A stretch of DNA of 64,000 bases from a bacterium UBP8_UBA817 (lineage in GTDB: Bacteria > Margulisbacteria > Marinamargulisbacteria > CAMDBA01). Positions 43,322-45,505 of this stretch are shown here, piece by piece. The first letter of the stretch is position 1. The number at the start of each line of letters is the position of its first letter. The DNA is taken from contig CAMDBA010000002.1 in NCBI GenBank assembly GCA_945888995.1, positions 1,345 to 65,344 on the forward strand, written 5' to 3'. The notes beneath the pieces were generated by a model, which was not told the origin of the DNA, searched no databases, and saw only the letters and a list, made by a program, of their open reading frames with translations. The translations under genes were made by a program, and so were the position numbers.

Positions 43322-45505
43322 ATGACGAATGCGTATAAGATTATTTCGTGCGATTTAGAAGTAGGTTTCATATTATCCACGATTGAGACATTAGAGAGTT
43401 TAGGAAAAGATATAGCCCAGGATGTTCGTCATTTTCCTTTAAAACTGATGAGATTGGCTATATTGCATAATGCCGGGTTGCCGGTTCCAAACGGAATCGT
43501 AGTGTCTATCTCAAACGACGGTGAAGCGGGATCTCATGCCTTCGAAGAAGCTGTGAGCAGATTTGGGACAGAGAACTTAATTTTGCGGGGGATCGACGAC
43601 GACTTGCCCTGGCAAGCAGGCGCGACAAACTCACCGATTGCCAAACGAGCGCAATTTACACGGCAGCTGTCTGAGATGGCCATGGATGTGGAGGCTCATG
43701 CCGACGTTTTACGAAGAAAAAATAGCGGTCATTTACTGGGATATTTTGAGATCGATATGCTCCGAGACATGGTTTTTACAGGTGAAGCGCCTGCAGTTTC
43801 CGAATTACCGAAAGTGACGCTGCTTCAAAAGTTCGAGCCCCGCTCACATAGCGGAACCTTTCTTATTGATGATAAATATATCGTCGTAGGTTATTTTGAA
43901 GGAAATGGCGGTCCGACCAAACATGAAACCCCCACTCAAGTTGTCCTGAATAAAAAAGGGCGTATAATCAGCGGCGCATTGCCGGAGTCGGTCGCCGTAG
44001 AAATTGCAAGGATGGCCGAGAAAATTCAAAAAGCACTCTTACCCTACGAGCTGGGCAGTCCGAATTGGGTCATTGAGTATTGTGCTAATTTATTTGAGCC
44101 ATCGGATCTAGGGATGACTATTCTCCAAGCACGACCTATTGCAGTGCCATCTGAGCCCGAAGTCGATCCTGTGGTCAATCCGGAGGTGTTTCGATTCGGA
44201 TCGTATGCGCTTCCACTTTCAGGGAAAGTGGTTCGTATAGAGTGTCGTGATGACCTGGCTAAAGTAAAGTACGATTCGATCGTTGTTTCGCCGCTTTGTG
44301 CGAATGTTGATTTCCGGAATCTGAAGGTAGAACCCCGAGCGATTTTGATGGATGGCGGCGGCGCAGGTCAACATAACGTATTGGTCACCAAGTCAATCGG
44401 ATGTCTGGTTGCAAAACCGGACTTTTTTGCAGAACTAGCGGAGGGGCAATCTGTCATGATCGGGGTTAACGGTAGGACCGGAAAGCTCTATGTGAAGAAA
44501 GGGGAGGGACCCGCTGACATTTCTAAAAAAGAACAAATAACCCATCAAACCGGCGAGCTCATTTTTTCAGAAGAAGCCGAATTCGACCGAATTGTTGTGT
44601 CCAACCGGGAATTATTGGGAGCCACCACGATTCATCCTGATCGTACTGAAGATGTTATTGATAGTGATTTAGGATGCTATGTGACGACTGTGAATGGGGT
44701 AAAACTGATATTAGCCACTGATTCAAAGACGCCTGAAAAAGTCCGACGTGAGTTTTCTTGTATGAATAATGCAACATTGTTGAGCATGTTAAAAGGGCCT
44801 TTGAGATACGGGTTTGCGGTATATGCCGATCAGAATCTGTTGATTGGAATGGAAATGGATAATCCGCACGGCAGTATGTCTAGCCGGTTTGAAAAATATG
44901 CAGGAAAATTAACACTGATGACATCCAGTCGGTTATTTAATCATGAAGGACACCGTAAAGGATATGAAGTGTATAACATCCTTGTGCCCCGTACGTCCGA
45001 TCGTCTAACAATGCGGTTTTTTAATACCTGTTATGGAGATGACGATGAGTCTTTACCTGAAGTTAATCCTGAGAAATTGATCGCGAGACTTTTAATTCTC
45101 AAACGGCTGAATATTTCTTTCTCCGACTGTTCGTTCATGTTCCAAAAATATGAAGGGTCATTCGATTATATTGAACTTGCTAGTAAAATGGCCGGGTCAG
45201 GTCAATTTGCCCGGGATGACTGCCATCAGATTTTAGAGATGATCCCGGTCCAAGATGGAGACAAAACCATTTTTATTTCACGATATGATTACCGTAATTG
45301 CATGAGGCAATATGCCCAAAATGGCATGGTCGATCTTCAAAAAACCATGTATTTGCACTTTGCCAAAGAAAGAGAAGAAGGAAAAGCACTATATATACAA
45401 AAATTAGCGGAAAATGTTTACAGTATTTCCCGTTCAAAACTTGATGAAAAGACACTTCCGAGACTTTGCTCGGCACTCCAAATGGTCGACTCATTACCGG
45501 AATAA
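43322..45505 (+). CDS. PEP-synthase/PPDK-family phosphotransferase (ATP-grasp N-domain plus swivelling phosphohistidine domain) with an unknown C-terminal domain
   Basis: Start at the ATG at 43322, after GAAGGAG. HNAGLPVPNGIVVS ... ILQARPIAV resembles the PPDK_N ATP-grasp domain. SGKVVRIE...SIVVSP...ILMDGGGAGQHNVLVTKSIGCLVA...GQSVMIGVNGRTGKLYV resembles the PEP-utilizer mobile His domain. The last ~330 aa are unrecognisable. Confidence 0.6.
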   Translation: MTNAYKIISCDLEVGFILSTIETLESLGKDIAQDVRHFPLKLMRLAILHNAGLPVPNGIVVSISNDGEAGSHAFEEAVSRFGTENLILRGIDDDLPWQAGATNSPIAKRAQFTRQLSEMAMDVEAHADVLRRKNSGHLLGYFEIDMLRDMVFTGEAPAVSELPKVTLLQKFEPRSHSGTFLIDDKYIVVGYFEGNGGPTKHETPTQVVLNKKGRIISGALPESVAVEIARMAEKIQKALLPYELGSPNWVIEYCANLFEPSDLGMTILQARPIAVPSEPEVDPVVNPEVFRFGSYALPLSGKVVRIECRDDLAKVKYDSIVVSPLCANVDFRNLKVEPRAILMDGGGAGQHNVLVTKSIGCLVAKPDFFAELAEGQSVMIGVNGRTGKLYVKKGEGPADISKKEQITHQTGELIFSEEAEFDRIVVSNRELLGATTIHPDRTEDVIDSDLGCYVTTVNGVKLILATDSKTPEKVRREFSCMNNATLLSMLKGPLRYGFAVYADQNLLIGMEMDNPHGSMSSRFEKYAGKLTLMTSSRLFNHEGHRKGYEVYNILVPRTSDRLTMRFFNTCYGDDDESLPEVNPEKLIARLLILKRLNISFSDCSFMFQKYEGSFDYIELASKMAGSGQFARDDCHQILEMIPVQDGDKTIFISRYDYRNCMRQYAQNGMVDLQKTMYLHFAKEREEGKALYIQKLAENVYSISRSKLDEKTLPRLCSALQMVDSLPE

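Follow-up and report, generated by a model that had tools for sequence, protein, structure and literature searches.

A gene at positions 43322-45505 on the forward strand encodes a 727-aa protein resembling phosphoenolpyruvate (PEP) synthase in the 64,000-nucleotide stretch analyzed here, hereafter the window (contig CAMDBA010000002.1, positions 1,345 to 65,344, assembly GCA_945888995.1), from the Margulisbacteria bacterium UBP8_UBA817. With a probability of roughly 0.58, we consider the product to be a three-domain, ATP-dependent phosphotransferase of the swivelling-histidine superfamily in which a C-terminal acceptor domain takes the place of the PEP/pyruvate barrel. Sequence comparison placed the protein in the superfamily of PEP synthase (PEPS), pyruvate, phosphate dikinase (PPDK), and rifampicin phosphotransferase (RPH), and it most likely works in the same way. 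Catalysis, a dikinase stoichiometry, and an acceptor role for the third domain are what we infer from these comparisons.

Relatives of the protein were scarce. An exhaustive phmmer search of 1.84 billion representative sequences recovered only six remote relatives (P0002-P0007, E values of 2e-39 to 7e-11, 27-33% identity), and the family amounts to seven 50%-identity clusters among those representatives, with pairwise identities across its members of 20-33%. A word-indexed search of 5.8 billion clusters with the window protein returned its own 99% cluster alone, and word-indexed searches with the family alignment and with a canonical PPDK_N module of the relative P0007 returned either that cluster or nothing. 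No additional family members came from scanning genome, metagenome (two scans), and viral contigs. Two of the relatives are annotated as belonging to Omnitrophota and Thermodesulfobacteriota metagenome-assembled genomes (MAGs). The family is very rare, patchy in distribution, and stand-alone, and the origin of the relatives in unrelated uncultured lineages fits an accessory trait, for example in detoxification or resistance.

The relationship to PEPS was evident with a family profile, built from an alignment (A1) of the window protein and five of the six relatives (6 sequences). Against 177,635 PDB sequences, this profile matched the PEP synthase 8a8e_A (E=1.1e-8), and the remaining three matches at E<10 (9dae_A, 2ols_A, and 9goj_A) were likewise PEP synthases. 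The significant stretch paired profile positions 214-388 with residues 319-484 of 8a8e_A, covering the final helix and strands of the ATP-grasp fold, the linker, and the entire swivel domain; in the ATP-grasp part of this stretch, the family sequence IEY…ILQARP was aligned with IEW…IVQSRP of PEPS. The consensus of the family hidden Markov model also matched the Pfam family PPDK_N (E=4.8e-4), with residues 174-272 aligned to positions 217-311 of the 328 in the profile, at a score of 19.9 bits that lies below the gathering score of 27 bits. In the homologue P0004, weak matches to PPDK_N and PEP-utilizers occurred in the correct order and at the correct profile positions. At the sequence level, homology to PEPS is thus demonstrable for the His domain and for the last part of the ATP-grasp domain. 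Defining features of PEPS, PPDK, and RPH were looked for and were not found in this protein, which for that reason was not filed under any of the three.

The linker and the swivelling phosphohistidine (PEP-utilizers-like) domain are predicted to span residues 276-395 (44147-44506, forward strand), which were aligned to approximately residues 390-484 of 8a8e_A within the E=1.1e-8 match, and to 9dae_A and 2ols_A as well. The original prediction had described a swivel domain of about 110 aa with the His of GGGAGQH at the catalytic position, and both the domain and the position are borne out by the significant match of the family profile to PEP synthases of known structure. The codon of this predicted phospho-carrier, His351, lies at 44372-44374 on the forward strand (translation checked) and is aligned with the His of the PEPS motif GGRTSH. 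His351 is invariant (7/7 family members) and sits on the His of GGRTSHAAIV. The canonical swivel motif T/SxxGGxxxH and the Thr of GGxTSH have been described previously (PMC12167813). This regulatory Thr, two residues before the catalytic His in PEPS and PPDK, was absent from the window protein, which has GGGAGQH, and other members carry N, F, K, or similar residues there. Such departures from the motif suggest that the protein lies outside control by the PPDK/PEPS regulatory proteins.

Residues 1-275 (43322-44146, forward strand) correspond to a predicted ATP-grasp (PPDK_N-like) nucleotide-binding domain, identified from the profile and consensus matches and carrying K41, R89, D92/D93, E252, Q269, and R271. 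Its last part, from about residue 214 to residue 275, aligned with the corresponding part of PEPS when the family profile was compared to the PDB. Upstream of this, the collinear motif pairs were K41 in PLKL with the Lys of GGK, GLPVPxG, and LRGxDDD...AG..S with VRSS..ED..FAGQ..T; the family N-terminal pattern 'K..L..L..aGLPVP.G' aligned, weakly in each case, to GGK…G(I/L)PVPPGF in three PEPS chains. K41, R89, D92, D93, E252, Q269, and R/K271, together with H351, were conserved in every member that covers them. By alignment, the ATP and Mg ligands of the superfamily (the GGK Lys, the VRSS Arg, and the Glu, Gln, and Arg of E...Q-x-R-P) are retained as K41, R89, E252, Q269, and R/K271. By alignment position, K41 corresponds to Lys22 of RPH, R89 to Arg117, and E252 to Glu297. 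Lys22 and Arg117 are required in RPH, Arg117 for transfer to rifampicin, while Glu297 coordinates Mg and its Ala mutant remained active (PMC4844700). Thus, of the initial proposal that the N-terminal ~270 aa form an ATP-grasp domain, the C-terminal third was upheld by profile matches, and for the remainder conserved collinear catalytic motifs are the only evidence. Judged from these motifs, the remaining part of the domain is very probably present as well.

The conserved C-terminal alpha/beta domain, presumed to bind the acceptor, spans residues 396-727 (44507-45502, forward strand). These 332 aa were conserved in all six relatives, including within the first ~1000 residues of P0007. Invariant positions were G459, H516, R537, G572, L590, L593, K594, and F629; R495 was present in 6/7 members, and the His and Arg of an 'IHPDR' motif (H438/R441) were kept in 5/7. 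With a 7-sequence alignment, AlphaFold2 (AF2) gave a confident model of this domain with a mean predicted local distance difference test score (pLDDT) of 76.9 and a predicted template modelling score of 0.79, the five models having pLDDT values of 68-77. The model begins with a helix of ~30 residues (402-432), followed by an alpha/beta region rich in beta-hairpins, and contains no beta/alpha barrel.

This domain had been described at the outset as a ~330-aa region resembling nothing recognizable, and it stayed unmatched in Pfam, NCBIfam, PDB sequences, and PDB and BFVD structures. A Foldseek search of 350,542 PDB chains returned none at E<=0.001, with villin/gelsolin repeats as the best match (E=0.41, TM 0.16), and none of the 69 weak matches to the PDB was a PEPS, PPDK, Enzyme I, or RPH chain. 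The same model gave nothing at E<=0.001 in BFVD. A profile of the domain found nothing below E=0.69 among PDB sequences, and with the cut-off relaxed to E<=10 it still matched no chain of PEPS or PPDK. The family consensus had no Pfam match in this region, the PEP/pyruvate barrel family PF02896 matched neither the consensus nor any member, and no internal repeats were detected in the domain. Both the PEP/pyruvate TIM barrel and the rifampicin-binding domain had been looked for as identities that would overturn the proposal, and neither was found by sequence or by AF2 and Foldseek. We suggest only tentatively, as a possible although rather doubtful outcome, that the C-terminal 330 residues adopt a new fold and extend swivelling-histidine dikinases to a new class of acceptor, which could be an antibiotic-like or signalling metabolite, or even a polymer or a protein.

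The open reading frame (ORF) at 43322-45505 is a real gene, complete with its stop codon. The long ORF spans 43235-45505 on the forward strand if read from a TTG, and the ATG at 43322 gives the 727-aa product listed for this frame. A Shine-Dalgarno-like GAAGGAG (43307-43313, forward strand) was read directly in the sequence 8 nt 5' of this ATG, and gene calling on independent assemblies yielded the same product of 727 aa. The motifs quoted in the original prediction (HNAGLPVPNGIVVS, ILQARPIAV, and GGGAGQH) were all present in the 727-aa translation. The window protein was identical in two other assemblies and identical to database entry P0009, and seven further full-length variants are on record, each 3-11 substitutions away, for a total of eight full-length population variants. 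Relative to L001, the most divergent DNA copy, there were 7 synonymous and 10 non-synonymous differences across ~491 synonymous and ~1690 non-synonymous sites, giving a rough dN/dS of ~0.4 based on small counts. The ratio and the full-length variants fit a gene that is intact and mildly constrained.

If the protein works as its relatives do, ATP would be bound in the cleft of the N-terminal ATP-grasp domain by K41, R89, E252, Q269, and R271. His351, on the small mobile domain, would attack the beta-phosphate, with release of AMP and transfer of the gamma-phosphate to water or phosphate. The phospho-His domain would then swing on its linkers, one of which may be the helix predicted at residues 402-432, to the C-terminal domain, and the phosphate would be passed to an acceptor bound there, in the domain that replaces the PEP/pyruvate TIM barrel. 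Residues H516, R537, and K594, mostly R495, and in 5/7 members H438/R441 may bind and activate this acceptor. There is precedent in the superfamily for a change of acceptor through the domain that binds the substrate other than ATP, as in RPH and HpeHI/CreHI/PpsAB (PMC4844700, PMC12167813). The acceptor is most likely not pyruvate, and a small molecule would be the likeliest, by analogy with the rifampicin or phenolic acceptors of the sister families.

Several observations weigh against this interpretation. Searched on its own, the window protein matched no Pfam family beyond a chance-level DncV fragment (E=0.16), and it had no match in NCBIfam, PADLOC, or PDB sequences. The check for PF01326 and PF00391 that accompanied the original prediction, when made with the single sequence, was formally negative, and homology was visible at the family-profile level only. 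Profile-profile scores between the family and both the canonical PPDK encoded at locus L006 and the canonical module of P0007 were non-significant, with collinear motifs in these comparisons (LRGxDDD…AG..S with LRSASDEED…AAGRFSS, Q…SG with Q…SG, and QARP with QQRE). Over its first ~170 aa, the ATP-grasp domain was proposed from collinear motifs only, and a full-length AF2 model from the single sequence had a pLDDT of 35, which is unusable for the N-terminal fold. The swivel motif deviates from T/SxxGGxxxH, as the T/S eight residues before the His and the regulatory Thr are both missing, and in two members PIAR(K/N)SH stands in place of GG. The third domain is presumed to bind the acceptor from its position only. 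Lastly, in an all-against-all comparison of five family loci, the target family was the only element in common, and there was no conserved neighborhood.

This lack of a conserved metabolic operon context would fit a regulatory autokinase or protein kinase, in which the ATP-grasp and His domains would autophosphorylate and the C-terminal domain would dock partner proteins or sense a ligand and would have no acceptor site for a small molecule. The model for such a protein is VadK (Rv1127c), which is PPDK-derived and is described as having lost the ancestral PPDK role, as autophosphorylating on a His, and as interacting with metabolic enzymes (bioRxiv 10.1101/2025.10.30.685616). The architecture of P0007 also seems closer to signalling than to metabolism. 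This protein of 2682 aa, encoded in a Thermodesulfobacteriota MAG (L006:10001-18049), contains one copy of the three-domain family module at its N-terminus, fused to a second module with a canonical PPDK_N domain (E=2e-30) and a weak PEP-utilizers match at residues 1864-2327, such that a single chain holds two dikinase engines. The P0007 gene is convergent to a gene for a canonical three-domain PPDK (L006:18050-20938, reverse strand). Set against a VadK-type role are the invariant His, Arg, and Lys of the third domain, which are typical of a phosphoryl-transfer site, and the fact that this domain occupies the exact place of the PEPS acceptor domain. Moreover, the gene neighborhoods indicate no partner protein, and overall we regard a regulatory kinase of this type, although the main rival, as unlikely.

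A catalytically dead or repurposed relic, having an ATP-grasp-like region without dikinase ATP binding and serving, for example, a structural or ligase-like role, would be in keeping with the failure of any curated profile to reach threshold, with the strong divergence of the ATP-grasp domain over its N-terminal two thirds, and with the extreme rarity of the family (7 clusters). On the other side, the key residues (Lys of GGK, Arg of VRSS, the Mg-binding Glu/Gln, Arg of QARP, and the carrier His) were invariant or conservatively replaced at 20-33% identity. Because conservation of this catalytic residue set would be unexpected without selection on catalysis, we consider loss of activity quite improbable.

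An ordinary, fast-evolving PEP synthase whose C-terminal TIM barrel had diverged past recognition would share the order of ATP-grasp, His, and third domain, the barrel-like length of the third domain, and the PEP synthase identity of the best PDB matches, but it is essentially excluded by the end of the significant PEPS alignments at the His domain, by the absence of PEPS and PPDK chains at E<=10 from the search with the C-terminal profile, and by an AF2 model made up largely of beta-hairpins and helices that found no PEPS, PPDK, or Enzyme I among its 69 weak Foldseek matches.

Returning to the three-domain phosphotransferase, its gene neighborhoods provided no contextual lead to a substrate. 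Upstream of the gene in the window is a giant ORF of 2502 aa (34645-42153, forward strand) with no Pfam or NCBIfam match. The 90% cluster of this ORF contained only copies from the same population, of 2502-2507 aa, plus fragments. It is followed by a 223-aa ORF (within 42306-43159) that has a signal-peptide-like N-terminal segment and no family match, a strong, long bidirectional terminator hairpin (42993-43031) that lies between the 223-aa ORF and the next gene, and tRNA-Gly(CCC) (43084-43159, reverse strand), opposite in strand to the target gene. Because the terminator hairpin and the opposite-strand tRNA-Gly lie in between, the target is not expected to be co-transcribed with the giant ORF. 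The original prediction had raised the possibility of a link between these two genes, and this did not hold up, as the terminator and the oppositely oriented tRNA separate them and the giant ORF has no relative at any homologue locus. Near the tRNA-Gly there was no GC anomaly and no integrase was seen, and so signs of a genomic island were absent there.

On the 3' side of the target, without a predicted terminator, are genes for a TlyA/FtsJ-like methyltransferase, a DOT1-like methyltransferase, and RecN. They form a tight three-gene run (45561-48640, forward strand) in which the TlyA/FtsJ-like protein contains an S4 domain, the DOT1-like S-adenosylmethionine-dependent methyltransferase follows with a 4-nt overlap, and recN starts 1 nt later. 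Since only 56 nt separate the run from the stop codon of the target, all four genes may be in one operon. The downstream genes are housekeeping genes and give no indication of the substrate. The match of the downstream methyltransferase to the DOT1 family had an E value of 3e-10, and a DOT1-family protein is unusual in a bacterium.

Neighbors at the homologue loci included selenocysteine and molybdopterin genes, glycogen genes and a phosphofructokinase gene, the gene for CarB, a gene for a canonical PPDK, and uncharacterized ORFs. Across the five loci, neither the giant ORF nor the 223-aa protein, TlyA, the methyltransferase, or RecN had a relative. At one locus (L004:4100-11932), the gene for P0004 is directly downstream of genes for glycogen synthase and phosphofructokinase on the same strand, and a glycogen phosphorylase gene is located on the opposite strand just upstream of these two. 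This is a hint of a glucan or sugar-phosphate link, which comes from a single locus and does not recur in the others. Elsewhere in the window, an orphan ORF of 1079 aa (21528-24767, forward strand) had no Pfam or PADLOC match; the genes for a GH94-family protein (18285-21092) and for a GlgA-type glycogen synthase (15705-17174) are upstream of it. IlvD, encoded at 6973-8673 on the forward strand, was 71-77% identical to proteins from MAGs of many phyla, with its best matches in UBP8_UBA817 and in unclassified bacteria. Even for the window proteins GlmS, RecN, and PntB, the 90% clusters contained only members from the same population.

A literature search found no description of the domain architecture of the window protein. 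Among characterized systems, PEP synthase (pyruvate, water dikinase; PDB 8a8e, 9dae, and 2ols) is similar in its order of ATP-grasp domain, swivel His domain, and third domain, and the N-terminal motifs of the window protein are of the PEPS rather than the PPDK type (R-x-x-x-D/E-D ... AG..S/T). The window protein differs from PEPS in having a third domain other than the PEP/pyruvate TIM barrel (PF02896) and in lacking the regulatory Thr before the His (GGGAGQH instead of GGxTSH), and the overall similarity is below Pfam thresholds. VadK (Rv1127c) of mycobacteria is another dikinase relative, described as having lost its ancestral metabolic role while keeping an autophosphorylating His (bioRxiv 10.1101/2025.10.30.685616). 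At the C-terminus of the protein described here, in place of the PEP/pyruvate barrel, is a different domain of 332 aa that is conserved and foldable. RPH and the two-component phenol and hydroxyphenylethanone dikinases (PpsAB, CreHI, and HpeHI) follow the same logic of an ATP-grasp domain and a swivel His, and in them a non-barrel acceptor domain sets the specificity for a small molecule (PMC4844700, PMC12167813). The domain order of RPH is different, with the acceptor domain placed after the ATP-grasp domain and before a swivel His domain at the C-terminus (PMC4844700). In the window protein, the swivel His domain occupies the middle (residues ~300-395) and the unmatched domain the C-terminus.

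Another point of comparison is glucan, water dikinase (GWD) and phosphoglucan, water dikinase (PWD), which are swivel-His dikinases that take their specificity from added non-barrel domains, and at one locus the family member P0004 adjoins glycogen genes. In GWD, the starch-binding modules are N-terminal and the ATP-grasp domain is C-terminal; the protein described here showed no carbohydrate-binding module. The swapping of acceptor domains is already established as a principle, and nothing found here overturns existing knowledge. If the C-terminal domain does represent a new fold and acceptor class, a small and scattered family would catalyze a phosphorylation reaction that has not yet been described. 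With one gene and one predicted catalytic His, the protein is a compact target. The ATP-grasp/His engine is modular, serving central metabolism with a pyruvate barrel, resistance with a rifampicin pocket, and aromatic catabolism with phenol-binding domains, and being combined elsewhere with starch-binding modules; a further conserved acceptor domain without detectable relatives would add a module to this set and would point to an as yet unknown phosphorylated product.

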